Positions 2,494 to 24,826 of a stretch of 64,000 nt of DNA are shown here, piece after piece. Within the stretch, counting starts at the first letter, position 1. Each line of letters starts with the position of its first letter. Source of the DNA: a virus (taxonomy: Duplodnaviria; Heunggongvirae; Uroviricota; Caudoviricetes); the IMG/VR virus record IMGVR_UViG_3300045988_005753. One strand, given 5' to 3'. Made by a program: the position numbers and the translations under genes. Below the pieces are notes generated by a model, which was not told the origin of the DNA, did not search any database, and saw only the letters and a list, made by a program, of their open reading frames with translations.

Positions 2494-2958
2494 TTATCGT
2501 AAAACTTGGTAAGCTGGTACTGCAAACTTGTTGCTATTGTTCCTAATAAGGTCTTCTTCTGTTACTAAGAATGTAATCCCACATAAGTGCGTATGGTGGC
2601 TGTCATACTCGAATATTTTAAGTAAGTATTTACCATCATGATAAACAGATTCTACTACACCTTTTGCAACAATCTTTCCAGTCTTGAAGTCTTTAAGAGG
2701 GTATGTATTACCAACTTTAGGGACTGTTTTCACTTCAGGTTCTTTTAGCTTCTCACTAGCTTCTACATCACCTAGTAAGTTAGAACTTTCAAAAGCTACG
2801 TGTTTCATATATGCTTCTGAACATTCCCAGATAAAACAATGTACAAGAACCTTAGCAGCATGTCTTGAGCAATTCAACTCATCACAGATTTCTTTGTACA
2901 TTTCATCTTTAGTTGAATTGGTAAGCATTGCTTTTCGAACTGTTTCTTTAATTTTCAT
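2494..2958 (-). CDS. hypothetical protein
   Basis: ATG start with GGAGAG RBS upstream. Confidence 0.55.
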   Translation of the reverse strand: MKIKETVRKAMLTNSTKDEMYKEICDELNCSRHAAKVLVHCFIWECSEAYMKHVAFESSNLLGDVEASEKLKEPEVKTVPKVGNTYPLKDFKTGKIVAKGVVESVYHDGKYLLKIFEYDSHHTHLCGITFLVTEEDLIRNNSNKFAVPAYQVLR

Positions 2959-3376
2959 AAGCTCTCCGAATAACCCTATTAAGCATCTCTAAAGTCAGCT
3001 TTCCAGATTCTAAATGTGGCACAATAAGTTTTAAAGCTTTTTCAACATCATGCACAACATCTATTATACCTTCTGCATAGGCTTCTACAAGGATATCTTT
3101 TACATTTTGTGATTTACCTTTTTGTGGTATCACTAGACGCATATCAAACTTATTTGCTTGAGGATGGTTCTTACCTTGCCAATAACCGTCTTTGTTAAAG
3201 CTGATGTAGTCACCGTGGTAAAAGTGTACACCATTAGCTTTAAACTTCTCCAGCACAAGGCATTGAATTGGGTATTCAGTATTCCACTCCCTGACTCCTA
3301 TAACCTTCACTGTTGCGATGTACTCCTGTGTTTTTGCATCTATGATGTCAAGTTCTTGACCAGCTATGATTTGCAT
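2948..3376 (-). CDS. hypothetical protein
   Basis: ATG start; operon-like packing with neighbours. Confidence 0.5.
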   Translation of the reverse strand: MQIIAGQELDIIDAKTQEYIATVKVIGVREWNTEYPIQCLVLEKFKANGVHFYHGDYISFNKDGYWQGKNHPQANKFDMRLVIPQKGKSQNVKDILVEAYAEGIIDVVHDVEKALKLIVPHLESGKLTLEMLNRVIRRAYEN

Positions 3377-3429
3377 ATTCGCTACCTTCTAAGTTTCTAC
3401 AAAGGGGCTATCAAGTAACCCCTAAGTTA

Positions 3430-6670: not shown

Positions 6671-7061
6671 AAAAACCTCTCTCTGCTTGTTCGATTTTTG
6701 CTCTTAAAGTTTCGCAATGCTGTAAATGGTAGTTAGCTTCTTGTTCATGTGTTGCTAACTGCCTTTCCAGAACAGTTTTATAGTAACCTGCAAGTTGCTC
6801 TTTTGTCAATGGGTGCTCTGAAATAATATCAAGTCCACTTTCACCAAGAGGATTGAATTGTCCATGCTCATTGACATTGTAAGTCTCAAACTTGAACATA
6901 CCATTGTTCACAGACTCAATAGGTGACAGTTCAACAAGCTCTACAGTAAACCGTGTATACACCTTGTCGCCTCTTGAAACTACATTGTTTCCAATGATGC
7001 GTACAAGCGAACCATTACGAGTGTATTTAAAAGTTCCAAAGTCACTAGCCCAAAGTTTCAT
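6663..7061 (-). CDS. hypothetical protein
   Basis: ATG with GGAGAAAA RBS immediately downstream of the terminator at 7079-7103. Confidence 0.55.
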   Translation of the reverse strand: MKLWASDFGTFKYTRNGSLVRIIGNNVVSRGDKVYTRFTVELVELSPIESVNNGMFKFETYNVNEHGQFNPLGESGLDIISEHPLTKEQLAGYYKTVLERQLATHEQEANYHLQHCETLRAKIEQAERGFYE

Positions 7062-7078
7062 AGTTTTCTCCTTAGAAA

Positions 7079-7103
7079 ATAAAAAAGGCTCCCGAAGGAG
7101 CCT
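7079..7103 (-). terminator. rho-independent terminator or attenuator after the endolysin gene
   Basis: hairpin AGGCTCC-CGAA-GGAGCCT followed by a T-run on the minus strand. Confidence 0.6.
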
Positions 7104-7112
7104 ATGAAGATA

Positions 7113-7577
7113 TTACTTTGGGTATACACTGTCAAGATAAATGTCAGCTTCCATTCTACGTCTGTTTTTCAGTCCGTTTGAAGTGACCTTCTTACCTTTG
7201 ACTGTAACCTTGTTCCACCACTGCATAGCTTCTGCACAACCTCCCTTATTACCAGCGTTGTGGCGCTTGATAAATGTTGAGTCCTGCATAGCTGTGATAC
7301 CGATGTTGTATGTTTCACTTACAAGTGCATCGAACTCATTCTGAGTAGTTGGAACCTTGATAGCTTTGTTCACTGCTGCAACAAACTTCTCAACATCCGC
7401 GAGAAGATACTGTTCAGCTTGTTCAGCAGTAATTTTCATACCCATCTTAACAGTTTTTCCGTCAATACGAATTGTACCATACCCGATTGTTGGGATTCCG
7501 GCAGAGTCTTCGTAAGCCTCTAACTCCAGACCTTCGAAGAACTTAATAGCGTCTAAACCTTTTCTTGAGAGTTGCAT
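7113..7577 (-). CDS. endolysin, phage lysozyme (T4 e / lambda R-like)
   Basis: N-terminal FEGLELEAYEDSAGIPTIGYG matches the catalytic-Glu region of phage lysozymes; 154 aa. Confidence 0.8.
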   Translation of the reverse strand: MQLSRKGLDAIKFFEGLELEAYEDSAGIPTIGYGTIRIDGKTVKMGMKITAEQAEQYLLADVEKFVAAVNKAIKVPTTQNEFDALVSETYNIGITAMQDSTFIKRHNAGNKGGCAEAMQWWNKVTVKGKKVTSNGLKNRRRMEADIYLDSVYPK

Positions 7578-8710
7578 TACGCCTCCCCTGCTGGGTTAAC
7601 TGTAACTGTTGCTGCATTGGATGTTACAGAGCCACCTGCACCAGTAACTACACAGGTGTAGCTTCCTGCATCAGCAGCGGTTGCACCTTCTTTGGTGTAA
7701 GTTGCAGTAGTTGCATCGAGGATGTCTTCCTCACCTTTCTTCCATTGGTAACCTGTCGCACCTGTTGCCACAACATTCAGCGTTAAGGTCTCACCTTCAG
7801 TGATTTCTTGATTGGTTGGCTGTTGAGTGATAACTGGTAAAGCTTTCACAGTAACGGTTGCAGGGCTAGAAGTGACAGAACCACCTGCACCTGTTACAAC
7901 GCAAGTGTATGAACCTGCATCTGCTGGCAGAGCACCAGACTTACTATAGGTTGCATCTGTAGCCGAAGGAATGTCAGAGCCATCTTTCTTCCACTGATAA
8001 CCTGTTGCACCTGTTGCAGTCACTTCCAAGTTGATGTTTCCACCCTCATTGACGGTCTGGCTAGAAGGTTGCTGTGTAATCACAGGCAGTGCGTTGACAG
8101 TAACTGTTGCCGCATCTGAGGTAACGCTTGTCCCAGCCTCTCCAGATACAACACAAGTGTATGAACCGGCATCAGAAGGTTCTACAGACTGTTTTGTGTA
8201 GGTTGCAGATGTGGCGCTAGTGATATCCTCACCATCCTTTTTCCATTGATATCCAGTGGCATTAGTTGCAACAACGCTTAGGGTAAGTGTACCACCTTCA
8301 TTTACTGTTTGATTGGTTGGTTGCTGAGTGATTGATGGTGGCTTGATAGCGTCCTTCAACTTAGCATTCAACATTGAGAATGGTTTAACTCTTGCCAGCC
8401 ATTCACAATAAACTGTATCAACGTCTTTACCATTGATAATTGCATATTGTAAGTCCATGAAGAAGTCAGAAGTTCTCATTTGAGCACCAATGCTGTAAAG
8501 CAACTCATCACTAAATGGAACTTTGTAGTCTGGTTTGTAGTCAAACTCATCGACTTCTGCAATATCAGCTTCAGGCCAATACGAACTGTAGGTAAGCGGT
8601 AAAATAGCCTCTTGATATGTTCTAAAATCATATCTCTTACCAGCCTTTACGTTTGCAATGAAGCCCTTCACAAACTCTTTGAAGTCTGGGTAAGTCTTTG
8701 CTTTAATCAT
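7577..8710 (-). CDS. protein with three tandem Ig-like domains; N-terminal domain paralogous to the 8707-9078 product
   Basis: three repeats of about 90 aa (ITQQP..NEGG..GATGYQWKKDG..DAGSYTCVV..VTV); shared WPE(A/E)DI and FMDLQY motifs with the neighbour. Confidence 0.7.
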   Translation of the reverse strand: MIKAKTYPDFKEFVKGFIANVKAGKRYDFRTYQEAILPLTYSSYWPEADIAEVDEFDYKPDYKVPFSDELLYSIGAQMRTSDFFMDLQYAIINGKDVDTVYCEWLARVKPFSMLNAKLKDAIKPPSITQQPTNQTVNEGGTLTLSVVATNATGYQWKKDGEDITSATSATYTKQSVEPSDAGSYTCVVSGEAGTSVTSDAATVTVNALPVITQQPSSQTVNEGGNINLEVTATGATGYQWKKDGSDIPSATDATYSKSGALPADAGSYTCVVTGAGGSVTSSPATVTVKALPVITQQPTNQEITEGETLTLNVVATGATGYQWKKGEEDILDATTATYTKEGATAADAGSYTCVVTGAGGSVTSNAATVTVNPAGEA

Positions 8711-9078
8711 TTCTTTTTAGCCTCTAAATGTGCGTTTAGTCTAAAATAACCTTTGTGATGCGGAGATACGTCACCAACAACAATACCTTTAACCTTATAA
8801 CCTTTACCAATTACATACTGGATATCCATAAGGAATCTTCCAAGACCAACAATATGGAACATTGGATATAATAGATTCTCAGAGTCTGGAATATTGATTT
8901 CGGGTTTGTAGGTACGATGTTCGATTGTTGGTGTAATATCTTCTTCAGGCCATTTGCTGAGTCTCCATGTCAAAGGTGTTGGGATAACATCATTAAGGCT
9001 GTACCTTTCACCATTTTGCACGGAATTGACATAGGATTGTAGGAAGCAATAAAAGTCTTTTGCACTCTTAGCTTTCAT
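8707..9078 (-). CDS. hypothetical protein, paralog of the N-terminal domain of the Ig-like protein
   Basis: alignable motifs KAK..DF, G(E/K)RY, WPEEDI, YKPE, LMDIQYVIGKG. Confidence 0.55.
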   Translation of the reverse strand: MKAKSAKDFYCFLQSYVNSVQNGERYSLNDVIPTPLTWRLSKWPEEDITPTIEHRTYKPEINIPDSENLLYPMFHIVGLGRFLMDIQYVIGKGYKVKGIVVGDVSPHHKGYFRLNAHLEAKKK

Positions 9079-9125
9079 TAAATATCCTTATAAATAGTTA
9101 AAGGGGCATCAGCCCCTATTCACAC

Positions 9126-9716
9126 TTAAGCTTTGGTCTTAAGTAGGTTCTTAAGTTTTTTAAGATTCATACTCTCATCAAACTTAAAACCAAATCCATT
9201 GACATAATCAATGAACTCGGATTTCTTACTAAGTGACAATGCGTAACTCATATCGAAGTTCTTACTTGTTTCTGCGTCTGGACTAGAGTTCACATCAAAT
9301 GAAATTTCTGTAGGTTCTTGCTTACTTTTTCTCATATTATCAACCAACAAACATGTATAGTTTGCTGGATAGAAGTTTACACTGCCATCAACGTAGCTGT
9401 ACTTATTATTATGGATAAGGTTGGAAAATACCTTAAGAAATGTTTCTGAGTCGTGGCAAACAAGTTTGAATTGGCTGCTCTCTCCAAGCGCAACTAATGA
9501 GTACGGACTTTCACTATCAAAGTCATAATTTGGATTCGATGGCGTCACTGTTACACGCATCAAGTTATTAGCGATAGTCTTCTGTTTAAAAGAATTTTGA
9601 ACATAGTGAAGACCTCTCTCACACTGATTGACTAGCTCTTTAAGTAGGTCATTTGCATATGGTGAATTAATTGATACAGAGCCATCACTATTGTAATTAA
9701 AACTTACTGTTAACAT
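9126..9716 (-). CDS. hypothetical protein
   Basis: ORF of 196 aa. Confidence 0.55.
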   Translation of the reverse strand: MLTVSFNYNSDGSVSINSPYANDLLKELVNQCERGLHYVQNSFKQKTIANNLMRVTVTPSNPNYDFDSESPYSLVALGESSQFKLVCHDSETFLKVFSNLIHNNKYSYVDGSVNFYPANYTCLLVDNMRKSKQEPTEISFDVNSSPDAETSKNFDMSYALSLSKKSEFIDYVNGFGFKFDESMNLKKLKNLLKTKA

Positions 9717-9943
9717 TTTTCAGTTCTCCTGCGATTTATAATTTTGCTGCAATAGAGAAACGAAGTAAACTCACTGGAAGAAACCACTAAGTGTTGTTCA
9801 CTAGATTGAGCCATTGCCCTGAAATACATTCCAGTCAAAGCATCATAGTGACTATTCTTTCCAATTGAGGTTATATAGCCATGACTCTTTGCAGTTTGAT
9901 ATAAATCTATAATATCTGCGATTTCTAATTGGGAACTACACAT
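9710..9943 (-). CDS. hypothetical protein
   Basis: ATG with AAGAGGA RBS. Confidence 0.5.
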   Translation of the reverse strand: MCSSQLEIADIIDLYQTAKSHGYITSIGKNSHYDALTGMYFRAMAQSSEQHLVVSSSEFTSFLYCSKIINRRRTEKC

Positions 9944-10086
9944 AGATAATCCTCTTGTCTTCTGTAATTTTGAAAGAACAGGTACAGACCAATTTCAGAG
10001 GATGAATAGTAGATTAACTCTACCCTTTTTGATTCCTTACAGTGATTGGTATTCTTACCTTTCTTCGGTTTATTTGATTTTCTCAT
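9925..10086 (-). CDS. small basic hypothetical protein
   Basis: ATG at 10086 has an AAGGAG RBS; the longer track ORF lacks one. Confidence 0.4.
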   Translation of the reverse strand: MRKSNKPKKGKNTNHCKESKRVELIYYSSSEIGLYLFFQNYRRQEDYLCVVPN

Positions 10087-10183
10087 TAAGTCTCCTTTGT
10101 AGAACAAGGCAGACCTACAGCTTTAAGTAAGATGGTACAGTAATCCATACAACAAGTCAAGAACTATTGCAAGTTAAAAAAGT

Positions 10184-10215
10184 TGTTGACAAAGTACTTG
10201 ACAAGGTGTAGGCTT
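10184..10215 (+). promoter_or_regulatory. conserved tandem TTGACAA element (GTTGACAAnnnACTTGACAAGGTGT) in a divergent intergenic region
   Basis: a near-identical element recurs at 51719-51746 in the second divergent intergenic region. Confidence 0.5.
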
Positions 10216-10335
10216 ATAAATACTTAGAAGATAACTTAAAAGGTTCCTCTAAAAAGGCTATTTAAACAGATATCTTTCTGGATATCTATCTTTTATCTTA
10301 AAAGCCTTTTAAGAGGTCTTATAAGAGGCATACCA

Positions 10336-10707
10336 ATGAAAAACAGAACAAACAAAGGCCAGTTTAAAAAAGGCCAGTCTGGAAACCCATCTGGAAGACC
10401 AAAAGGCTCACGTAACAAAAGCTCTCTCGTAAAAGCTCAACTGACCATTGATAATTCTGCTGAGTTTGCTGCAAAGTTGTTTGAAGCAATTGTTACAAGG
10501 GACGCTGCTAAGCTTGCAGAGTTCGGTTTGACGACTGACGATGTAAACCTGAAGTCGATGATGGAGGCTGGTAAAACTATCATGACTCACTCAGCAGGTG
10601 AGATGAAAGCGATTGCAGCAGACACTAAGAAGACCCCTGATAACGGTGGTCAGTCTCAGACAGATAACAAACCAACGTTCTCTGCTGTTGCAACGCTTAA
10701 AAAATAA
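10336..10707 (+). CDS. hypothetical protein with N-terminal GNPSGRPKG motif (possible DNA-binding, terminase-small-subunit-like)
   Basis: ATG with AGAGG RBS; basic glycine-rich N-terminus. Confidence 0.5.
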   Translation: MKNRTNKGQFKKGQSGNPSGRPKGSRNKSSLVKAQLTIDNSAEFAAKLFEAIVTRDAAKLAEFGLTTDDVNLKSMMEAGKTIMTHSAGEMKAIAADTKKTPDNGGQSQTDNKPTFSAVATLKK

Positions 10708-10789
10708 TTTTAAAAGGTGTTGACAGGCTCTATAAAGTTGCTCTAAAGTCTGTCACATCAACTAACAAAATGAGAGAAGAGAGTAAAAT

Positions 10790-12205
10790 ATGAGCGAATT
10801 ATTTAAACATGCGCACCTTCATGCAGGTCGAACTGAAAATGGTGCTGTAAACCATACTTCATCAATGTCTGCTCTTGTAGACTTTTACAAAGCTGCTGGT
10901 TCAAGCCGTAGCAATGTAGAAATCTTACCAGACCTGTTCTACAAAGCTTTGCGTGAGGATGTTGATGTTGCAGTTCGTATTTTACTGCATATGCGAGATG
11001 TACGAGAAGGTATGGGTGAGCGTAAAGCCTTCAGAACTGTTTTGCTTCAAGCGATTGAAGATAAAGTTTTAGAGCCTACGCAGGTTCTTCGCATTATGGA
11101 TAAGATTGCAGAGCTTGGTCGTTTTGATGACTTCAAAATCTTTGTAGGTACTCGTTTCGAGACAGATGCCTTCAAGCATTTAGAAGCAGCATTACTAGAC
11201 CCTGCAACAGCAGGTTTGGCAGCTAAGTGGTTACCACGAGTCAAACCACGTCATAAGCAGTTTGTAAAACGTTTCTGCAAGTTTGCAAACTTGAGTGAGA
11301 AAGAGTACCGCACACTGCTGTCTGCACTATCTGATACAGTTGAACAAAAAATATCTGCTAATGAGTTTGGTAAGATTGACTACAGTAAGATTCCTTCACT
11401 TGCTGCTGCACGTTACCAAAAGCTCTTTAACCGTAAAGATGGAGAACGCTACAAAGCTTACATTGAGTCCTTATCAAAGGGCGAGACTAAGATTAATGCT
11501 GGTGCTGTTTATCCATATGATGTGATTAAATCTATCAAGTATGGTAATGCAGATGTTGCTAATGAGCAGTGGAAAGCACTACCAAACTGGATGGCAGAAG
11601 GTGAAAACATCCTGTGTATGACTGATGTTTCAAGCTCAATGTCTTGGGTGAATCTTGGTTCAATCACTGCCCTTGATATTGGTGTATCCCTTGCCTTGTA
11701 TGTAGCAGAACGCAATACAGGTTGTTTTAAGAATGAGTTAATGGTTTATTCAACAAACCCTCATTTCATCGAACTGAGTGGTGATTTACGAAACCGTCAT
11801 CGTCAGGTAATGCGTCATGTTGAATATGGTTCAACTAACTTACAAGCAGCTTTTGACCGCATTCTTGAAATAGGTAAGAGAAACAACTTGACTCAGGAAG
11901 ATATGCCAAGTAAGCTTATCATCTTCTCTGATATGGAGTTCAATCAGGTTGACGGTGCAAATGGTCATACAAACTTTGAAGCAATTCAGAGTAAGTACAA
12001 AAAAGCTGGATATGAGATGCCACAATTGGTATTCTGGTACTTAGCAAACCGTAATGGTACTTGCGAAGTGTCTGTTAAGGATAACGGTGTAGCAATGGTA
12101 TCTGGTTTCTCTCCAGCCACTTTAAAAGCTCTGCTTGGTGGTGAGAAGTTTGACCCAATCAGCGTAATGCTCAAAGCAGTAATGATTGACCGCTATATCT
12201 GGTAA
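10790..12205 (+). CDS. vWA-domain protein, candidate Ro60/TROVE-like RNA-binding protein
   Basis: 471 aa; helical N-terminal part then a DxSxS MIDAS-type motif (DVSSSMS) typical of vWA folds; sits directly upstream of the tRNA array that contains Y-RNA-like elements. Confidence 0.55.
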   Translation: MSELFKHAHLHAGRTENGAVNHTSSMSALVDFYKAAGSSRSNVEILPDLFYKALREDVDVAVRILLHMRDVREGMGERKAFRTVLLQAIEDKVLEPTQVLRIMDKIAELGRFDDFKIFVGTRFETDAFKHLEAALLDPATAGLAAKWLPRVKPRHKQFVKRFCKFANLSEKEYRTLLSALSDTVEQKISANEFGKIDYSKIPSLAAARYQKLFNRKDGERYKAYIESLSKGETKINAGAVYPYDVIKSIKYGNADVANEQWKALPNWMAEGENILCMTDVSSSMSWVNLGSITALDIGVSLALYVAERNTGCFKNELMVYSTNPHFIELSGDLRNRHRQVMRHVEYGSTNLQAAFDRILEIGKRNNLTQEDMPSKLIIFSDMEFNQVDGANGHTNFEAIQSKYKKAGYEMPQLVFWYLANRNGTCEVSVKDNGVAMVSGFSPATLKALLGGEKFDPISVMLKAVMIDRYIW

Positions 12206-12223
12206 AAAGTTTTAAAAAGGGTA

Positions 12224-12252
12224 TTGACAATGTGTTTAATACCCTTTAATAT
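12224..12252 (+). promoter_or_regulatory. sigma70-type promoter upstream of the tRNA array
   Basis: TTGACA, 17-bp spacer, TAATAT. Confidence 0.55.
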
Positions 12253-12370
12253 GTTCTACATAGAAACGAAATGAGAGCTTTTCTAAGATACTGAAAAATA
12301 TTTTAAAAAAGTTCTTGACAACCACTAAAAAATAATGTTAAAGTAGTTACATAGAGTTTGAAAAGTTTAT

Positions 12371-12447
12371 CTCTGTTTAGCTCAGCTTGGTAGAGCGTTC
12401 CGTTTGGGGCGGTAAGGCCGGAGGTTCAAGTCCTCCAACAGAGACCA
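12371..12447 (+). tRNA. tRNA-Pro (UGG)
   Basis: cloverleaf folded by eye: acceptor CTCTGTT/AACAGAG, T-arm GGAGG-TTCAAGT-CCTCC, encoded CCA. Confidence 0.75.
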
Positions 12448-12454
12448 AATTAAT

Positions 12455-12532
12455 GTTCCAGTAGACAAAATGGTAAAGTCACCACTCTTTCAAAGTGGAT
12501 ATTTGAGGGTTCAAATCCCTTCTGGAACGCCA
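12455..12532 (+). tRNA. tRNA-Glu (UUC)
   Basis: acceptor GTTCCAG/CTGGAAC, anticodon stem CCACT/AGTGG, loop CTTTCAA, CCA. Confidence 0.75.
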
Positions 12533-12537
12533 GTTTT

Positions 12538-12618
12538 GACAGAAGACCAATTACAGCAAACTTAATCTTATTCATCTGAAGGTAAATCGGACAAAGAAGA
12601 GATTTGGTCTGGTCATTA
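12538..12618 (+). ncRNA. stem-bounded structured element A (ACAGAAGACCAATTACAGCAA ... TTGGTCTGG)
   Basis: 5' AGACCAA pairs with 3' TTGGTCT; compensatory changes relative to elements B and C. Confidence 0.4.
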
Positions 12619-12623
12619 AGAAT

Positions 12624-12700
12624 TGCGGGTATAGAGAAAGGGCGTCTCACATGTCTCATTAGCATGGTATCGGCAGGTTCGACTCCTGCACCCGCCTCCA
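12624..12700 (+). tRNA. tRNA-Met-like (CAU), irregular acceptor with a 1:72 mismatch
   Basis: T-arm GCAGG-TTCGACT-CCTGC, anticodon stem CATGT/GCATG, loop CTCATTA, CCA; 5' boundary uncertain. Confidence 0.5.
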
Positions 12701-12705
12701 AATTT

Positions 12706-12776
12706 ACAGAAGACCGTTTACAGCAACATTTATTAAATTTTTAGCGGAAAAATTGAAAGATACGGTCTGGTAATAC
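12706..12776 (+). ncRNA. stem-bounded structured element B (ACAGAAGACCGTTTACAGCAA ... ACGGTCTGG)
   Basis: 5' AGACCGT pairs with 3' ACGGTCT; internal AATTTTT-AGCGG-AAAAATT hairpin. Confidence 0.4.
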
Positions 12777-12783
12777 TAAACAT

Positions 12784-12860
12784 GGTTAGGAAGCACATAA
12801 GGTATGTGCGGTCGCCTGTTAAGCGAATGGCACAGGGTTCGAATCCCTGACTAACCGCCA
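12784..12860 (+). tRNA. tRNA-Asn (GUU)
   Basis: acceptor GGTTAGG/ACTAACC, D-stem GCAC/GTGC, loop CTGTTAA, T-arm CAGGG-TTCGAAT-CCCTG, CCA. Confidence 0.75.
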
Positions 12861-12929
12861 AATTTAGGAGAGAAGCGATTGCTCACCGATTTGTAAGGTG
12901 CAAGTCCTTAGCCTGAATAGAAATTAAAT

Positions 12930-13017
12930 GTGTCGTTATCCCGTAGATGGTAGCGGTGGGGACTGTAAATCCCTTGTCATTGAGACTCGGTAGGTTCGAC
13001 TCCTACACGGCACACCA
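12930..13017 (+). tRNA. tRNA-Tyr (GUA), long variable arm
   Basis: 88 nt; acceptor GTGTCGT/ACGGCAC, loop CTGTAAA, T-arm GTAGG-TTCGACT-CCTAC, CCA. Confidence 0.7.
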
Positions 13018-13022
13018 ATAAA

Positions 13023-13100
13023 GGTTATGTAGTTTAATCTGGTTAAAATACTCCCCTGTCACGGGAGATGATGAGGGTTCAAATCCCTTCGTAACCGCCA
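13023..13100 (+). tRNA. tRNA-Asp (GUC)
   Basis: acceptor GGTTATG/CGTAACC, anticodon stem CTCCC/GGGAG, loop CTGTCAC, CCA. Confidence 0.75.
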
Positions 13101-13124
13101 ATTTTGAGAGGGCTATTTAGCCCC

Positions 13125-13160
13125 TCCCTTAAAGAGTTCTTACGAGTATTCTTTAAAGGA
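13125..13160 (+). other. conserved hairpin (stem CCTTAAAGA/TCTTTAAAGG, loop containing TTCTTACGAG)
   Basis: same hairpin family recurs at 13974-14005 and 16466-16495, each time in a spacer of the tRNA array. Confidence 0.45.
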
Positions 13161-13161
13161 G

Positions 13162-13240
13162 CAGAAGGCCAAATACAGCAAGAATGTATGAAATTTCAAG
13201 CCAATTTAATTTTGAAAATTTAAAACTTGGTCTGGCTCAA
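13162..13240 (+). ncRNA. stem-bounded structured element D (AGAAGGCCAAATACAGCAAG ... TTGGTCTGG)
   Basis: 5' GGCCAA pairs with 3' TTGGTC (one G-U); same ACAGCAA core as A, B and C. Confidence 0.35.
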
Positions 13241-13247
13241 CAAATTT

Positions 13248-13385
13248 ACAGAAGACCGTTTACAGCAAAACTTAAACAATCTATTTCTCCGGTAAAGAAA
13301 AGGCGAAGGTTCGATTCCTTCACTCGGCAGATGTCGAGTTGGTGTAATGGTAGCACTTAAGATGATAAACAACGGTCTGGTAATT
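13248..13385 (+). ncRNA. candidate Y-RNA / YrlA-like tRNA mimic: closing stem around a circularly permuted tRNA-like module
   Basis: order read directly: 5' stem AGACCGTT, T-arm GAAGG-TTCGATT-CCTTC, acceptor 3' strand ACTCGGC, 4-nt loop, acceptor 5' strand GTCGAGT, D-arm GTGT-AATGGTA-GCAC, 3' stem AACGGTCT. Confidence 0.5.
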
Positions 13386-13529
13386 ATCTTTGTAGATAAG
13401 TTATTAAGCTTACCTGTGAGTATGCGACCACAAAGGGTGAATGGGTAAATTCTAGATTTAAACCCAAAAAGGCACATCGCTACAGACCTTAAGCAAGTCT
13501 GGGTAGCTTATCTACAAAGATAATTTAAT

Positions 13530-13605
13530 GGAAGTGTAGCAGAATGGTGATGCGGCAGACTTTTAATCTGACAGGCGATGGGTTCGAATCCCTCCACTTC
13601 TACCA
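13530..13605 (+). tRNA. tRNA-Lys (UUU)
   Basis: acceptor GGAAGTG/CACTTCT, loop CTTTTAA, T-loop TTCGAAT, CCA. Confidence 0.7.
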
Positions 13606-13609
13606 ATAT

Positions 13610-13686
13610 GGTTCAGTCGCAGATAAGGTAATGCAAGGGTCTCATAAGCCCTATGAATGTGGGTTCGATTCCCATCTGAACCTCCA
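13610..13686 (+). tRNA. tRNA-Met or tRNA-Ile2 (CAU)
   Basis: acceptor GGTTCAG/CTGAACC, anticodon stem AGGGT/GCCCT, loop CTCATAA, CCA. Confidence 0.7.
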
Positions 13687-13687
13687 A

Positions 13688-13763
13688 GCTGGTATAGTTA
13701 AGAAGGTTATAACACTCCCCTGATAAGGGAACATCGGTGGTTCGATTCCACCTACCAGTACCA
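13688..13763 (+). tRNA. tRNA-Ile (GAU)
   Basis: acceptor GCTGGTA/TACCAGT, D-stem GTTA/TAAC, loop CTGATAA, T-arm GGTGG-TTCGATT-CCACC, CCA. Confidence 0.7.
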
Positions 13764-13778
13764 ATTTCAATAAAGTTG

Positions 13779-13807
13779 TTGACATTGAGATGTGACTACT
13801 TTATAGT
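13779..13807 (+). promoter_or_regulatory. internal sigma70-type promoter within the tRNA array
   Basis: TTGACA, 17-bp spacer, TATAGT. Confidence 0.5.
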
Positions 13808-13973
13808 AACCTTAGTTTTCGTTGCGTAGCGTCTATTTTGCAAATTTAAAATAAATGCAAACGACAATGTTTTTCTGGCAGTAGCTTGATAGGCTAAACA
13901 CCAGTGAGGTCTTCCAATCCCTCATCAAAGAATTTGGCGTACTCGCCCACGGTATGATTAATAAGGTGGGCAT

Positions 13974-14005
13974 CTTTAAGGACTTTCTAAGAGAGTCTTT
14001 AAAGA
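13974..14005 (+). other. conserved hairpin (stem CTTTAAGGA/TCTTTAAAG, loop CTTTCTAAGAGAG)
   Basis: member of the TTCT(T)A(C/A)GAGAG-loop hairpin family. Confidence 0.45.
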
Positions 14006-14009
14006 TAAT

Positions 14010-14086
14010 GCACCCTTAGTTCAATTGGATAGAGCAACGGTCTTCTAAATCGTTAGTTACAGGTTCGAATCCTGTAGGGTGTACCA
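14010..14086 (+). tRNA. tRNA-Arg (UCU)
   Basis: acceptor GCACCCT/AGGGTGT, anticodon stem ACGGT/ATCGT, loop CTTCTAA, T-arm ACAGG-TTCGAAT-CCTGT, CCA. Confidence 0.75.
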
Positions 14087-14228
14087 AATAGTTAGCAGAT
14101 TACTTAGACTGCCTTAGCGGGTCTTCCTGTAGGGAGGTGGTCTGTATCTCATGTTTTCCAGAACATGTAAATAATCTGAGAAGAAGCTTGACAGTGTTGA
14201 GATAACAGGGTAAGCTTCGAATTATAAT

Positions 14229-14311
14229 ATGGGACGATGTTAAGACTCTAAGGCATGAGCAACGGCCTCCAAAACCGTTTCAAAGGGGTTCAACTCCTCC
14301 GTCCCATGCCA
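14229..14311 (+). tRNA. tRNA-like gene, probably tRNA-Trp (CCA), with an enlarged irregular D-region
   Basis: perfect 7-bp acceptor ATGGGAC/GTCCCAT, T-loop TTCAACT, CCA end, anticodon loop CTCCAAA; 83 nt. Confidence 0.5.
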
Positions 14312-14324
14312 AAGTCTTATTAGG

Positions 14325-14414
14325 GGTAGGTAGCGGCTAATGGCAGCCAAACAGTCTTGAAAACTGTTGCCACTGTAGAGATACGGTGAGGGTTCGACTC
14401 CTTTACTTACCGCC
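14325..14414 (+). tRNA. tRNA-Ser (UGA), long variable arm; CCA apparently not encoded
   Basis: acceptor GGTAGGT/ACTTACC, anticodon stem ACAGT/ACTGT, loop CTTGAAA, T-loop TTCGACT. Confidence 0.65.
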
Positions 14415-14565
14415 TAATAAGATTTACTCCGTCCATGCTTGTTCGCATTGTCGGTTTATCCCTCGTGTATTGTCGTACACTGTCAAAGCACCTAGTAGGT
14501 GTCATGGAGAGAGATAATATCAAGCTCTCCAAAGGTTCTAGTCACCGGATTAAACAAGACTATGC

Positions 14566-14588
14566 AAAGACCTAAATAGGTCTTTTTA
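14566..14588 (+). terminator. rho-independent terminator-like hairpin inside the tRNA array
   Basis: AAGACC-TAAATA-GGTCTT followed by TTTTT. Confidence 0.45.
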
Positions 14589-14591
14589 GAG

Positions 14592-14650
14592 GGCTTCTAA
14601 GGTTATTACAGCTTGTTGTGGAACCTTGTTGCTTAGGTTCTTAGAAGTTC
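14592..14650 (+). other. long hairpin (CTTCTAAGG ... CTTAGAAG)
   Basis: 8-bp inverted repeat around a 40-nt loop; related to the CTAAGG hairpin family. Confidence 0.35.
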
Positions 14651-14666
14651 TCTAAAAAGATTTAAT

Positions 14667-14744
14667 GGGAGATTGACGGTAATTGGTAAACCTACCATCC
14701 TTAGAAGTTGGTGTTTGAGGGTTCGAATCCCTTGTCTCCTACCA
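14667..14744 (+). tRNA. tRNA with anticodon UAG (Leu-type) but a short variable arm
   Basis: acceptor GGGAGAT/GTCTCCT, D-loop AATTGGTAA (Leu-like), anticodon stem CCATC/GTTGG, loop CTTAGAA, A73, CCA; 78 nt. Confidence 0.6.
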
Positions 14745-14751
14745 AATTAAT

Positions 14752-14827
14752 GCAGGTGTAGCAAAATGGTTATGCGGCTGACTCTTAATCAGTAAGACGA
14801 TGGGTTCAATTCCCTCCACCTGTACCA
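14752..14827 (+). tRNA. tRNA-Lys (CUU)
   Basis: acceptor GCAGGTG/CACCTGT, anticodon stem GCTGA/TCAGT, loop CTCTTAA, CCA; close paralog of the Lys(UUU) gene. Confidence 0.7.
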
Positions 14828-14833
14828 AACAAT

Positions 14834-14909
14834 GGGGTCATAGTTTATATGGTTAAAATTCGAGTTTTGCAAACTTGGGAACTGAGTTCAATTCTCAGTG
14901 ACTCCACCA
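14834..14909 (+). tRNA. tRNA-Ala (UGC)
   Basis: acceptor GGGGTCA/TGACTCC, anticodon stem CGAGT/ACTTG, loop TTTGCAA, T-arm CTGAG-TTCAATT-CTCAG, CCA. Confidence 0.75.
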
Positions 14910-14915
14910 ATTAGT

Positions 14916-14990
14916 GCATCCATAGTTTAAACGGGAAAATTACAGTCTTCCAAACTGAGGTTGAGGGTTCGATTCCCTCTGGATGCTCCA
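14916..14990 (+). tRNA. tRNA-Gly (UCC)
   Basis: acceptor GCATCCA/TGGATGC, loop CTTCCAA, T-arm GAGGG-TTCGATT-CCCTC, CCA. Confidence 0.7.
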
Positions 14991-14997
14991 AATTAAT

Positions 14998-15073
14998 GCT
15001 CCTATCGTATAATTGGTTATTACGGTTGCCTTGTAAGCAACTTATCAGGGTTCGAGTCCTTGTGGGAGCACCA
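14998..15073 (+). tRNA. tRNA-Thr (UGU)
   Basis: acceptor GCTCCTA/TGGGAGC, anticodon stem GTTGC/GCAAC, loop CTTGTAA, CCA. Confidence 0.75.
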
Positions 15074-15074
15074 A

Positions 15075-15165
15075 TTCAGAGGTCAAGTGAAAGACCGCTT
15101 TGAGTCAACTGAAGACCGTAACAAATTCCACGGAGTTGAGTTAGCGGCACAACTCCAGACCTCTT
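15075..15165 (+). ncRNA. structured spacer element E (long-range stem CAGAGGTC/GACCTCT, internal hairpin GGAGTTG...CAACTCC, GAAGACCGTAACAA motif)
   Basis: inverted repeats read directly; shares the GAAGACCGT core with elements A-D. Confidence 0.35.
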
Positions 15166-15169
15166 TCAT

Positions 15170-15244
15170 ACTCGCTTAGTTTATATGGTAAAACATCACC
15201 CTTACAAGATGAAGAAAAAGGTTCAAGTCCTTTAGTGAGTACCA
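15170..15244 (+). tRNA. tRNA-Val (UAC)
   Basis: acceptor ACTCGCT/AGTGAGT, D-stem GTTT/AAAC, anticodon stem TCACC/GATGA, loop CTTACAA, CCA. Confidence 0.7.
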
Positions 15245-15245
15245 T

Positions 15246-15323
15246 GTTCCAGTATCCCAATTGGCAGAGGATGCAAGCTCAAACCTTGTATTAGTGACGG
15301 TTCGAATCCGTCTTGGAACACCA
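15246..15323 (+). tRNA. tRNA with anticodon CAA (Leu-type) but a short variable arm
   Basis: acceptor GTTCCAG/TTGGAAC, D-loop AATTGGCAGAG (Leu-like), anticodon stem GCAAG/CTTGT, loop CTCAAAC, A73, CCA. Confidence 0.6.
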
Positions 15324-15328
15324 ATTTT

Positions 15329-15404
15329 GCAGGATTAGTTCAAATGGAAAGAGCAACAGTCTACGAAGCTGTTAATAGGGGTTCGAATCCCTTATCCTGC
15401 GCCA
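15329..15404 (+). tRNA. tRNA-Arg (ACG)
   Basis: acceptor GCAGGAT/ATCCTGC, D-stem GTTC/GAGC, anticodon stem ACAGT/GCTGT, loop CTACGAA, CCA. Confidence 0.75.
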
Positions 15405-15421
15405 GATAAAAAGGTGACACT

Positions 15422-15664
15422 ATGCAAACATTAACAGTAGTTGAACATGAAAACTGTGAGAGTATTGAGTTTGTCAGGGTCATTGGTGTTGAACACCACA
15501 TTTTCTTAAAAGTGGGATACTTATGTGACCCCGCTAGAGTAGAAAGATTTATACGTGATTGTTTTGGTGGTAGACATCTGAAGAGTGTTATTTTTGAGAC
15601 AGTTTTACCAGAAGGTTTAGAAACGAATAATAACATTTACCTCCTTACGAGGATTAGACAATGA
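15422..15664 (+). CDS. hypothetical protein embedded in the tRNA array
   Basis: ATG with AGGTGA RBS; ATGA coupling to the next ORF. Confidence 0.45.
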   Translation: MQTLTVVEHENCESIEFVRVIGVEHHIFLKVGYLCDPARVERFIRDCFGGRHLKSVIFETVLPEGLETNNNIYLLTRIRQ

Positions 15665-16218
15665 GATACTTAAAGTATGCTTCATGGATTTTCTTAGCTT
15701 TGTTAGAGCCATTTGCAGCAATCTTAGCAGTTATCTTAGCACCTTTCGTAGTTCCATTCTACAGTGAGAAGAAAGGACATCTACCTTTCGGGTTCAGATG
15801 GATGGAAACTTATGACAACCCAATTGATGGTGATGAAGGTCACGTTAAAAGATGGGCTAATATTAGATGGATTGGTAAACTAGGTGTCTACATGCAAAGA
15901 GTCGGATGGCTCTGGAGAAACAAAGCTTATAACTTCTCTTACCATGTATTAGGGAGAGATGTAAAAGATGTTACTAAGTGGAAAGGTAATATCAACGTAA
16001 GTTCTGACCCTGAAGATAATCAGACAGGTTATCTCCTAATGTGGAACAGTAATGCTTGGGGATTATTCGCTTTTATCCCATCAATTAAAATCTTTGGTAA
16101 ACAATTTTACTGGAGAATTTATATTGGATGGAAACTAAAAAGTGTTGTCCCAGAAGAAAGAGCATTCTCAAGGGAAAGAGTTATGTTGGCATTCTTTATT
16201 CATCCACTGAGAAAGTAA
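15661..16218 (+). CDS. membrane protein embedded in the tRNA array
   Basis: N-terminal hydrophobic segment WIFLALLEPFAAILAVILAPFVVPF; 185 aa. Confidence 0.5.
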   Translation: MRYLKYASWIFLALLEPFAAILAVILAPFVVPFYSEKKGHLPFGFRWMETYDNPIDGDEGHVKRWANIRWIGKLGVYMQRVGWLWRNKAYNFSYHVLGRDVKDVTKWKGNINVSSDPEDNQTGYLLMWNSNAWGLFAFIPSIKIFGKQFYWRIYIGWKLKSVVPEERAFSRERVMLAFFIHPLRK

Positions 16219-16226
16219 AGATTTAA

Positions 16227-16302
16227 AGGGGATTAGTTTACAAGGTTAAAACCTCGGTCTTTGAAATCGAAGAAGTTGGTTCAATTCCAACATCCCCCGC
16301 CA
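16227..16302 (+). tRNA. tRNA-Gln (UUG)
   Basis: acceptor AGGGGAT/ATCCCCC, anticodon stem TCGGT/ATCGA, loop CTTTGAA, T-arm GTTGG-TTCAATT-CCAAC, CCA. Confidence 0.7.
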
Positions 16303-16304
16303 AT

Positions 16305-16383
16305 GCTCCATTACTCCAATTGGCAGAGAGGCCAGACTTAAAATCTGTGTTATGTATCGGTTCGAATCCGATATGGAGTACCA
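16305..16383 (+). tRNA. tRNA with anticodon UAA (Leu-type) but a short variable arm
   Basis: acceptor GCTCCAT/ATGGAGT, D-loop AATTGGCAGAG (Leu-like), loop CTTAAAA, T-arm ATCGG-TTCGAAT-CCGAT, A73, CCA. Confidence 0.6.
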
Positions 16384-16388
16384 AATTT

Positions 16389-16464
16389 AGCGGTATAGCA
16401 TAACTGGCAATGCAGCAGTCTCTGAAGCTGTCTTATTAAGGTTCAAATCCTTATGCCGCTGCCA
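16389..16464 (+). tRNA. tRNA-Gln (CUG)
   Basis: acceptor AGCGGTA/TGCCGCT, anticodon stem GCAGT/GCTGT, loop CTCTGAA, CCA. Confidence 0.65.
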
Positions 16465-16465
16465 C

Positions 16466-16495
16466 TTCTAAGGATTCTTACGAGAGTCCTTAAAT
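16466..16495 (+). other. conserved hairpin (stem TAAGGA/TCCTTA, loop TTCTTACGAGAG)
   Basis: member of the TTCTTACGAG-loop hairpin family. Confidence 0.45.
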
Positions 16496-16571
16496 GTGGC
16501 CTTATCATAAATGGTAATGACCCATGCTGTGAACATGGTCTATACGGGTTCAAATCCCGTAGGTCACCCCA
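16496..16571 (+). tRNA. tRNA-His (GUG)
   Basis: acceptor GTGGCCT/AGGTCAC, D-stem TCAT/ATGA, anticodon stem CCATG/CATGG, loop CTGTGAA, CCA. Confidence 0.75.
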
Positions 16572-16576
16572 ATTTA

Positions 16577-16653
16577 TAGTCCAAGTAGCTTATATGGTTA
16601 AAGCGCGTGTCTGAAAAACATGAGAAGAGGGTTCAAATCCCACTGGACTACCA
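16577..16653 (+). tRNA. tRNA-Phe (GAA)
   Basis: acceptor TAGTCCA/TGGACTA, anticodon stem CGTGT/ACATG, loop CTGAAAA, T-loop TTCAAAT, CCA; 5' end uncertain by 1 nt. Confidence 0.65.
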
Positions 16654-16669
16654 ATTTCAAAGGTGCTTA

Positions 16670-17404
16670 ATGAAAGAGATGACAGAACAAGGTAAGGAGA
16701 TTTTTAATCTCTTAAAAACTGGTAAAGGGTTTTCTAACCCCCTTATTACTGGTGCAGCAGTTCTCGGTGGAACCGTAGCTGCCTCCACATCACTTGTAAG
16801 CTCTATTAGTTCTGTATCAGACCCTACAGTAAAAGATAAGCTTGTTGCTGCTGGACTTACAACAGTTCTGCTTAACAGCTTTACCACGAGTCTGACAAGC
16901 ACTACATCAACTACCAAAACACTGACAGATTACGGTCAAAAGTCCATTGATGAGTTTTCATCACGTATGCAGGTAGCAAAAGGTTATTCTAATGTTATGG
17001 GTGCAGCAGGTGAACAAGTTGGCTGTACACCATTTAGTGGTATTATGGGTGTTGCTACAGAGTATGGTCAAAAAGCTATTGATACGATTAACAGTGCACT
17101 AGACGGTGTTAATGATGTATTAAGTGATTTACAAGACGCTATTGACAAAGGTCTTGATACTATTTCTGATTTAGCTAACCAAGCTGTTAGTAAGATTAAT
17201 GAAGGTATCTCGAAGATTACAGCTTATGCAGATGAAGTTGTGCAGATGATTGAAGAAGAAGCTGCCCTTATTGCAGAGTACCTTAAAACGAATATCAATG
17301 GGTTCTTAGCAGGTATCTTACCAGACTGGTTTGATGATGCTTGTAAAACTGGTGTAATTGACACTATTGCAACACCAGAAATGAAGAACGCATTACAGAA
17401 ATAA
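16670..17404 (+). CDS. hypothetical Ser/Thr-rich protein
   Basis: track ORF starts inside tRNA-Phe; first ATG downstream of the tRNA (16670) has an AAAGGTG RBS. Confidence 0.5.
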   Translation: MKEMTEQGKEIFNLLKTGKGFSNPLITGAAVLGGTVAASTSLVSSISSVSDPTVKDKLVAAGLTTVLLNSFTTSLTSTTSTTKTLTDYGQKSIDEFSSRMQVAKGYSNVMGAAGEQVGCTPFSGIMGVATEYGQKAIDTINSALDGVNDVLSDLQDAIDKGLDTISDLANQAVSKINEGISKITAYADEVVQMIEEEAALIAEYLKTNINGFLAGILPDWFDDACKTGVIDTIATPEMKNALQK

Positions 17405-17405
17405 T

Positions 17406-17498
17406 GGAAGATTAACCCTAAAAGGTAAGGGAGCAGTTTGCTAAACTGCCAGTAGCTGAGAAATCGGTGTACCAGTTCAAGTCTGGTATCTTCCTCCA
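17406..17498 (+). tRNA. tRNA-Ser (GCU), long variable arm
   Basis: 93 nt; acceptor GGAAGAT/ATCTTCC, anticodon stem GCAGT/ACTGC, loop TTGCTAA, T-arm ACCAG-TTCAAGT-CTGGT, CCA. Confidence 0.7.
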
Positions 17499-17502
17499 AT
17501 TT

Positions 17503-17578
17503 GAATCCGTGACAGAAATGGCTATGTGCCTGTCTGCAAAACAGGTTTATAAGGGTTCGAGTCCCTTCGGATTCTCCA
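17503..17578 (+). tRNA. tRNA-Cys (GCA)
   Basis: acceptor GAATCCG/CGGATTC, anticodon stem CCTGT/ACAGG, loop CTGCAAA, T-arm AAGGG-TTCGAGT-CCCTT, CCA. Confidence 0.75.
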
Positions 17579-23719: not shown

Positions 23720-24826
23720 ATGTTGACTAATTCTGAAAAAAGCAGATTTTTCCTTGCTGACCTGACTGGTGAAGTCCAGTCTATCCCAAATACTTATGGG
23801 TATATTTCCAACTTAGGTCTGTTCCGTTCAGCACCAATCACCCAAACTACTTTCCTTATGGACTTGACTGATTGGGATGTTAGCTTGCTTGATGCGGTAG
23901 ACCGTGATAGCCGTAAAGCAGAGACTAGCGCACCTGAGCGTGTTCGTCAAATCAGCTTCCCAATGATGTACTTCAAAGAAGTTGAAAGCATTACTCCTGA
24001 TGAAATTCAGGGTGTACGTCAGCCAGGCACTGCAAACGAACTGACTACTGAAGCTGTAGTACGTGCTAAGAAGCTGATGAAGATTCGTACCAAGTTCGAT
24101 ATTACTCGTGAGTTCCTGTTTATGCAAGCTCTGAAGGGTAAAGTTGTTGATGCTCGTGGTACTCTGTATGCTGACCTGTACAAGCAGTTCGACGTTGAGA
24201 AGAAGACTGTTTACTTCGACCTTGACAACCCTAATGCTGACATCGACGCTTCTATTGAAGAACTGCGTATGCACATGGAAGACGAAGCTAAGACTGGCAC
24301 TGTAATCAACGGTGAAGAAATTCACGTAGTTGTTGACCGCTTATTCTTCAGCAAACTGGTTAAACACCCTAAGATTCGTGACGCTTATCTTGCACAGCAG
24401 ACTCCGCTGGCTTGGCAACAGATTACTGGTTCTCTGAGAACTGGTGGTACTGACGGCGTTCAGGCTCACATGAACACTTTCTACTACGGTGGTGTTAAGT
24501 TTGTCCAGTACAACGGTAAGTTCAAAGACAAGCGTGGTAAGGTTCACACTCTGGTGAGCATTGATAGTGTAGCAGCAACTGTTGGTGTAGGTCATGCTTT
24601 CCCTAACGTTTCTATGCTGGGTGAAGCTAACAACATCTTCGAAGTGGCATATGGTCCATGCCCTAAGATGGGTTATGCAAATACACTTGGTCAGGAACTG
24701 TACGTATTCGAATACGAAAAAGACCGTGACGAAGGTATTGACTTTGAAGCTCACTCTTACATGCTGCCATACTGCACACGTCCTCAGTTGCTGGTAGACG
24801 TTCGTTCTGACGCTAAACCAGACTAA
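23720..24826 (+). CDS. major capsid protein
   Basis: 368-aa ORF after protease and decoration genes, followed by a strong AAGGAGG RBS for the next gene. Confidence 0.7.
   Translation: MLTNSEKSRFFLADLTGEVQSIPNTYGYISNLGLFRSAPITQTTFLMDLTDWDVSLLDAVDRDSRKAETSAPERVRQISFPMMYFKEVESITPDEIQGVRQPGTANELTTEAVVRAKKLMKIRTKFDITREFLFMQALKGKVVDARGTLYADLYKQFDVEKKTVYFDLDNPNADIDASIEELRMHMEDEAKTGTVINGEEIHVVVDRLFFSKLVKHPKIRDAYLAQQTPLAWQQITGSLRTGGTDGVQAHMNTFYYGGVKFVQYNGKFKDKRGKVHTLVSIDSVAATVGVGHAFPNVSMLGEANNIFEVAYGPCPKMGYANTLGQELYVFEYEKDRDEGIDFEAHSYMLPYCTRPQLLVDVRSDAKPD

Follow-up and report, generated by a model that had tools for sequence, protein, structure and literature searches.

A predicted stand-alone paralogue of the Hex-Dec capsid-binding domain, conserved in Felixounavirus and related phages

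Electron cryo-microscopy (cryo-EM) of phages Bas63 and Sf14 shows a Hoc-like decoration protein whose capsid-binding domain (CapBD) sits as a monomer at hexamer centres (PMC12609058, PMC11821841). The occupied hexamers of the T=9 capsid are the pentamer-proximal ones, at the facet edge and on the quasi-3-fold, and not those on the true 3-fold (PMC12609058, PMC11821841). In Sf14, Arg79 and Arg107 form salt bridges to Asp221 of the major capsid protein (MCP; PMC11821841). The immunoglobulin (Ig)-like domains of both proteins are flexible and unresolved in the maps, their number ranges from 1 to 4 across the felixounaviruses, and the gene is commonly mis-annotated as that of a tail protein (PMC12609058, PMC11821841); in Bas63 a distance of over 10 kb separates it from the structural module (PMC12609058). 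The 64,000-nucleotide stretch analysed here in its entirety (the window; virus record IMGVR_UViG_3300045988_005753) is a Felixounavirus genome that encodes such a protein, referred to as Hex-Dec, and, overlapping its start, a 123-amino-acid protein that appears to consist of the CapBD alone. The latter, the paralogue, is our subject. The region is 96-98% identical to the corresponding regions of LMP34 and wV8, and 251 phage records match it. That the larger protein is a Hex-Dec orthologue and the smaller one a genuine, functional CapBD paralogue that is absent from the virion is, taken together, a conclusion in which we have considerable confidence. The parts of the locus on which the argument turns, with the basis for each, are as follows (ORF, open reading frame).

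8707-9078, minus strand: stand-alone CapBD paralogue of 123 amino acids, without an Ig domain (ORF list and BLASTP; PHROG 4463)
7577-8710, minus strand: Hex-Dec, 377 amino acids, CapBD and three Ig-like domains (ORF list)
8351-8710, minus strand: CapBD of Hex-Dec, residues 1-120, including Arg79 and Arg107 (98% identity to the solved Bas63 CapBD)
8096-8350, minus strand: Ig-like domain 1 of Hex-Dec, residues ~121-205 (Pfam Ig_3, best stretch 124-189; repeat alignment)
7844-8095, minus strand: Ig-like domain 2 of Hex-Dec, residues ~206-289 (Pfam Ig_2 and I-set at 209-288; repeat alignment)
7577-7843, minus strand: Ig-like domain 3 of Hex-Dec, residues ~290-377, and the stop codon (Pfam; repeat alignment)
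8707-8710, minus strand: ATGA overlap of the paralogue stop codon and the Hex-Dec start codon (sequence)
7113-7577, minus strand: GH24 endolysin (lysozyme; PF00959, E 4e-41; PHROG 7 endolysin)

The 377-residue protein matches, over its full length, chain S of the Bas63 (JohannRWettstein) capsid (PDB 9NCF; phmmer E 2e-300) and chain S of the Sf14 capsid, which is gp20 (PDB 9C2D; E 2e-168). Its CapBD is 98% identical to that of Bas63 and 87% identical to that of Sf14 gp20; Arg79 and Arg107 are both present in the translation and in the family alignment, and the window's MCP (23720-24826), 99% identical to that of Bas63, has Asp221. The likeness to Bas63 Hex-Dec and Sf14 gp20 thus embraces an N-terminal CapBD followed by tandem I-set/Ig_3 domains, the two arginines, a near-identical MCP and a gene placed just upstream of the endolysin. 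The same protein is gp41 of wV8 and has NP_944848 as its Felix O1 homologue; older database labels for the homologues are 'putative tail protein' and 'immunoglobulin I-set domain protein'. Mass spectrometry of purified Felix O1 virions detected the orthologue of that phage, gp36, with 44% peptide coverage (PMC3185647). Judged by its sequence, the 377-residue protein is a Hex-Dec orthologue, and its placement at hexamer centres is assigned by orthology. A pseudo-C2 symmetry has been reported for the Bas63 CapBD (PMC12609058); an internal duplication of two CapBD lobes is not detectable at the sequence level in the window's protein (BLASTP of the halves, E 2.9).

An earlier, sequence-only reading of this DNA had described both ORFs correctly, as a duplicated domain with one copy fused to three tandem Ig-like domains. 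Pfam bears out the number of Ig-like domains, with three Ig_3 matches (E 2e-34) alongside Ig_2 (1.2e-27) and I-set (1.4e-26) over residues ~124-377, but not the length of about 90 amino acids given for each: the repeats measure 83-88 residues (a period of 249-252 nucleotides) and are 72-73% identical pairwise. Of the two kinds of Ig profile proposed for checking, I-set is matched, while Big_2 has no Pfam match in the protein. Bas63 has four Ig domains and the window three, which is inside the described range; the window lacks a counterpart of Bas63 Ig3, and its own Ig3 corresponds to Bas63 Ig4 (from the alignment block pairing window residues 195-375 with Bas63 residues 278-458). The location of the gene was also read correctly, on the minus strand beside the lysozyme and away from the structural module. 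The implied conflict between that location and a role in the virion does not survive: the Bas63 and Sf14 orthologues sit on the capsid and their gene likewise lies outside the structural module, so that position is no argument against a virion role. Thus the Ig protein, its odd gene position and its variable repeat number are all already known, and the window simply carries a three-Ig allele. What goes beyond the sequence-only reading is that the duplicated domain is the capsid-binding domain, and that the part in need of explanation is the copy without Ig domains rather than the Ig protein.

The duplication itself is readily confirmed. The paralogue is 35% identical to the N-terminus of Hex-Dec over 101 residues (BLASTP E 2e-16), and the profiles match reciprocally (phrog_4463 to the long protein, 2.2e-16; phrog_3995 to the short one, 1.4e-14). 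In a 17-sequence alignment, the motifs by which the two had been recognized as related (G.RY, WPE.DI, YKP, F.MD.QY and LNA.L) are invariant or near-invariant columns; the residues common to both classes are all kept in the paralogue, and motifs specific to paralogues are strongly conserved. Over its residues 2-117 it matches residues 3-117 of the two capsid chains, 9NCF_S and 9C2D_S, directly (phmmer E 2e-11), at 32-35% identity to the solved CapBDs. The protein terminates exactly at the CapBD boundary (LNAHLEAKKK), and Pfam finds no match and no Ig-like domain in it. An AlphaFold2 model of moderate quality (mean predicted local distance difference test score 71, predicted template-modelling (TM) score 0.72) has 9C2D_S and 9NCF_S as its only significant Foldseek neighbours in the PDB (TM 0.67, root-mean-square deviation 4.0 Å, probability 1.0). 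A control model of a genuine Hex-Dec CapBD, built with the same alignment and 98% identical to 9ncf_S, reaches only TM 0.75 and 3.9 Å against its own structure, and the TM of 0.67 is therefore near the ceiling of the method. From homology and modelled fold, then, the 123-residue protein is judged to be a true paralogue of the CapBD alone, the product of an old tandem duplication. It is known under other names as wV8 gp42, Felix O1 gp37 (equated through the FO1a annotation), Sf14_gp21, bas63_0125 and VpaE1 ORF40c.

The family is a narrow one. In BFVD, Foldseek finds the CapBD fold in Ounavirinae proteins only. An exhaustive hidden Markov model (HMM) search of 1.8 billion representatives yielded 12 family members, the three most distant of which (P0059-P0061) are without taxonomic placement. 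The 12 comprise stand-alone paralogues, a few truncated forms and, otherwise, proteins in which Ig-like domains of one type or another come after the CapBD; in P0059 the CapBD is followed by a Lys/Ser-rich tail. A six-frame HMM scan of the window found the paralogue and Hex-Dec copies and no third CapBD.

Full-length paralogues are present in 233 of 253 matching phage records, nearly always together with Hex-Dec. The order 195-amino-acid protein, paralogue, Hex-Dec, lysozyme is kept in Felixounavirus (wV8, UAB_Phi87, Bas63), Mooglevirus (Sf14, Moogle) and Suspvirus (EcSzw-2), and recurs on a metagenomic contig of 87 kb, where the paralogue has no more than ~49% identity to those already known. 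In a neighbour-joining tree the paralogues form one clade and the Hex-Dec CapBDs another, each with 100% bootstrap support; since both are monophyletic, the duplication is older than the split of these genera. Kolesnikvirus groups with Hex-Dec at 52% bootstrap only, and it may either have lost the paralogue or have lacked it from the start. The ratio of non-synonymous to synonymous substitution rates (dN/dS) is 0.09-0.25 for the paralogue, with dS up to ~1.9, compared with 0.03-0.12 for the Hex-Dec CapBD and 0.07-0.12 for the lysozyme; the paralogue evolves at 2-4 times the rate of the Hex-Dec CapBD. By these measures it is under purifying selection and evidently a functional protein. Within Felixounavirus it comes in two allele classes: 117 records carry one with 95-100% identity to the window's, and 67 carry one with 80-90%. 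Between the window and UAB_Phi87, dS falls from 0.73 (paralogue) through 0.39 (Hex-Dec CapBD) to 0.15 (lysozyme), a gradient that, with the allele classes, suggests local mosaicism or exchange.

The paralogue and Hex-Dec genes are closely joined. The GAGG Shine-Dalgarno sequence for Hex-Dec lies inside the 3' end of the paralogue, and the junction, with its ATGA overlap (longer in EcSzw-2) and internal GAGG, is kept in 10 phages. This arrangement suggests that Hex-Dec is translationally coupled to the paralogue, as it probably is. Reverse-transcription PCR in Felix O1 shows ORFs 36 and 37 peaking late, at 60 min, with the portal, sheath and fibre genes, and the lysin ORF35 peaking at 25 min. 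Neither the proteomic nor the structural data, in which no search was aimed at it, place the paralogue in the virion. Felix O1 gp37 is not among the 17 identified virion proteins, a list compiled at a threshold of at least 25% coverage (PMC3185647). For VpaE1 virions, the main text of the report names just gp54, gp58 and gp68 as going beyond the Felix O1 set, and ORF40c is not named there. Bas63 (bas63_0125, at 1269-1640 of L013) and Sf14 (Sf14_gp21) both encode an intact paralogue. In Bas63 there is no density on the remaining hexamers (PMC12609058), and the Sf14 asymmetric unit contains only MCP (gp34), the β-tulip protein (gp33) and gp20 (PMC11821841). The paralogue goes unmentioned in the main text on Bas63 (PMC12609058) and in the main and supplement text on Sf14 (PMC11821841), and in the searchable literature we found no paper describing an Ig-less CapBD paralogue.

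Natural variants of the locus bear on the question of what the paralogue is for, and two of them are listed here.

2306-2497, Escherichia phage REP5 (L004): paralogue pseudogene
2501-3379, Salmonella phage SP3_SHan-2021 (L003, MW296865.1): chimeric gene, in-frame

The first represents 19 records that share a common pseudogene, in which the ATG has become ATA and there are small indels and an internal deletion. The carriers are REP5-12, Shigella phage Tf, SP116, Z31, mio, fBSPA4, fKMPT1, P54 and the CECAV phages, and to judge from the shared lesions the pseudogene looks like a single ancestral loss. In the second, paralogue residues 1-~49 are followed by Hex-Dec from residue ~50; ~372 nucleotides are deleted and the separate paralogue is gone. 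The junction falls at the common WPE(E/A)DI motif, where the two genes are 86% identical in DNA sequence over 21 nucleotides. The chimera occurs in the SP3_SHan-2021 record only (its nearest intact relative is vB_EcoM_Shy) and could be either an exchange of domains that happened in nature or an error of assembly. A further variant concerns Hex-Dec: in Salmonella phage ST11 (L005, 2869-3750) it is broken up into three short ORFs, beside an intact paralogue; this could be a natural null or the result of sequencing errors.

How might these elements work together? In the T=9 head the Hex-Dec CapBD would, by orthology, serve as a monomeric plug at the centres of the 60 pentamer-proximal hexamers, from which the three Ig-like domains would project outward as a flexible, Hoc-like fibre; the Bas63 and Sf14 authors have proposed Hoc-like roles for such a fibre in adhesion, aggregation or environment sensing, on inferential grounds. 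The paralogue, transcribed late along with Hex-Dec and probably coupled to it in translation, is maintained by selection, non-essential and not stoichiometric in the mature virion. Our tentative proposal, possible rather than probable, is that the protein works while heads are being assembled in the infected cell, where it would bind capsid hexamers or Hex-Dec itself as a ligand that has no Ig domains. It might, for example, fill hexamer centres for a time or vie for them, or serve as an escort for Hex-Dec, without being a permanent decoration. A more specific version, which we think unlikely, makes it a dedicated regulator of decoration: a ligand for the hexamer centre or for Hex-Dec, soluble or bound only for a time, which would act during head assembly and then depart from the mature particle. 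As such, it could, for instance, occupy hexamers of the procapsid or those on the true 3-fold, or could set Hex-Dec at 60 rather than 80 sites. We are not aware of any phage in which the binding sites of a Hoc-like protein are reported to be controlled by a separate gene.

Several considerations weigh against an assembly-time role, which is itself pure inference. Gly replaces Arg79 in every paralogue, and Arg107 has given way to His or Gln except in the metagenomic paralogue, which has Arg; with one contact gone and the other mostly gone, the paralogue may not bind hexamer centres at all. Between the window and Bas63 the paralogue is 82% identical, whereas MCP and the Hex-Dec CapBD are 98-99% identical, and such divergence beside near-identical capsid partners is a poor fit with tight co-evolution with the capsid. 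The 19-genome lineage that lost the gene keeps a Hex-Dec CapBD that is 97-98% identical, with no obvious change; the paralogue is therefore dispensable and any role that it has must be accessory. Its absence from the virion is read from thresholded proteome lists and icosahedrally averaged maps, and a low-copy 14-kDa protein could escape both.

Some of the same facts can be read as favouring a function unrelated to the capsid, such as binding of a host factor or participation in the lysis cassette. There is a precedent in P4 Psu, a decoration protein of hexamer centres that also inhibits Rho (PMC11718236). The loss of the arginine contacts, an evolutionary rate 2-4 times that of the Hex-Dec CapBD, alleles that do not track the near-identical MCP, absence from the virion data and membership of a terminator-bounded unit that also contains the endolysin all accord with it. 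Yet there is no sign of another partner or activity (no Pfam match and, on reading the sequence, no hydrophobic stretch), the residues common to both classes are all retained, and the tight coupling to Hex-Dec is kept across four lineages, which suggests that the functions of the two proteins are linked; we regard a capsid-unrelated role as somewhat doubtful, though it must be taken seriously. The paralogue might, at the other extreme, be a second, Ig-less decoration, a blank plug on the 20 true 3-fold hexamers or one present at low occupancy. It has the fold and family of a proven hexamer-centre binder, its late expression and translational coupling go with those of Hex-Dec, and Hex-Dec leaves one class of hexamer free. 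That Bas63 and Sf14 encode intact paralogues and nevertheless show no extra density or chain in their capsids, that the protein is missing from the virion proteins reported for Felix O1 and for VpaE1 and that the Arg79 contact is Gly throughout the paralogues make this improbable in our estimation.

Least to be expected are two readings that deny the paralogue a function or an existence of its own. As a functionless leftover of tandem duplication in slow decay, it would be of a piece with the 19-record pseudogene lineage, with its lost start codon and internal deletion, and with the one isolate whose chimera removes the separate gene. This is very hard to reconcile with a dN/dS of 0.09-0.25 at dS greater than 1, with a gene that is intact and does not vary in length across 233 of 253 records and four divergent lineages (one just 49% identical), and with strongly conserved paralogue-specific motifs, and we give it little credence. 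A programmed -1 frameshift at the A-rich junction could fuse the paralogue to Hex-Dec and yield a protein with two CapBDs: at 8711-8722 on the minus strand the window reads T-AAA-AAG-AAA-TGA, and a -1 shift in the last three Lys codons would read into the Hex-Dec ATG. AAG as the A-site codon is slippery in E. coli. Re-pairing in the P site would be imperfect, however, and no larger Hex-Dec species has been reported. Nor is the motif conserved: the corresponding codons are GAA AAG AAA in wV8 and GCT AAG AAA in both Sf14 and Moogle, and the sequences of EcSzw-2 and the metagenomic phage are entirely different. A frameshift is the most far-fetched of the explanations considered; going by its sequence context, the A-rich run is probably just Lys codons between the Shine-Dalgarno sequence and the Hex-Dec start. 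Among all these readings, the proposal that the paralogue is an Ig-less ligand acting during head assembly is the one that we retain, with the reservation already expressed.

Comparison with other decorated heads sets off what is peculiar to this locus. From Hex-Dec and gp20 the paralogue differs in being a CapBD only, without Ig domains and without Arg79. T4 Hoc resembles Hex-Dec in binding hexamer centres as a monomer and in extending a row of Ig-like domains from the head, but its CapBD is C-terminal whereas that of the window's protein is N-terminal, and the latter does not belong with Hoc-type CapBDs. We know of no stand-alone CapBD paralogue in T4. PHROG 'Hoc-like head decoration' families match the Ig region of Hex-Dec only (residues ~121-290), and the Bas63 CapBD is, according to its authors, larger than Hoc's and topologically distinct from it (PMC12609058). 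The Ig domain of T5 pb10 matches the Ig domains of the window (5LXK, E 4e-11; 8ZVI_a, residues 80-157), but the capsid-binding domains themselves share no similarity that can be detected in sequence, and the window's CapBD is not of the N-terminal pb10 type. Kolesnikvirus (the Erwinia phage phiEa21-4 group) has a homologous CapBD (HMM E 5e-8; BFVD TM 0.50) whose gene lies between a homologue of the 195-amino-acid-protein gene and the lysin. It differs in having a single Big_2-type Ig domain in place of I-set/Ig_3 domains, and no stand-alone paralogue upstream. The Big_2 domain of the Kolesnikvirus protein shows that CapBDs have become joined to more than one family of Ig domain. An example is the following.

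2501-3115, Erwinia phage Fifi318 (Kolesnikvirus, L010): CapBD-Big_2 gene, with a terminator before the lysin

The surroundings of the locus in the window can be described briefly. Two further features, both on the minus strand, mark its limits.

9103-9116, minus strand: hairpin GGGGC-TGAT-GCCCC followed by TTTAACTATTTAT, upstream of the paralogue (sequence)
7076-7103, minus strand: intrinsic terminator AGGCTCC-TTCG-GGAGCCT with a T run (annotated in wV8, Felix O1 and Tribble)

The hairpin, whose equivalent in wV8 and Felix O1 is listed as a rho-independent terminator, precedes the paralogue, Hex-Dec and lysozyme trio, and the terminator ends that unit; within it, the TAA stop of Hex-Dec and the ATG of the lysozyme have one base in common (TAATG). 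A sigma-70-like promoter scan found nothing in the 47-nucleotide leader. A candidate common late-promoter motif taken from that leader, AACTATTTATAAGG, has 14 matches at 3 or fewer mismatches against 11.8 expected. The structural module, on the plus strand, extends from TerL (18008) as far as the tail fibre (41067) and begins 9.3 kb from the locus. Between it and the minus-strand block lie 26 tRNA genes (12371-17578, plus strand), compared with reported counts of 23 in wV8 and 22 in Felix O1. Directly upstream of the tRNA array, 10790-12205 (plus strand) encodes a 471-amino-acid protein with DUF2828, DUF7788 and VWA_2 matches, labelled 'RNA-binding protein' in RefSeq wV8. Across 6900-12400, no Rfam family of structured RNA reaches threshold.

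What is new here is the conserved Ig-less CapBD paralogue only, and the question about head assembly that it poses is a modest and testable one. Anchors of the Hex-Dec type are candidates for phage display, as are Hoc and pb10, and an accessory protein that binds or competes for the same site would then be of practical relevance. Natural controls are already on hand in the 19-genome lineage that has lost the gene and in the chimera that puts the paralogue's N-terminal ~49 residues into Hex-Dec. With their help it may be possible to learn why about 90% of the Felix O1-, Moogle- and Susp-like phages keep a late-expressed, coupled and selected Ig-less capsid-binding domain that has not been seen on the virion.

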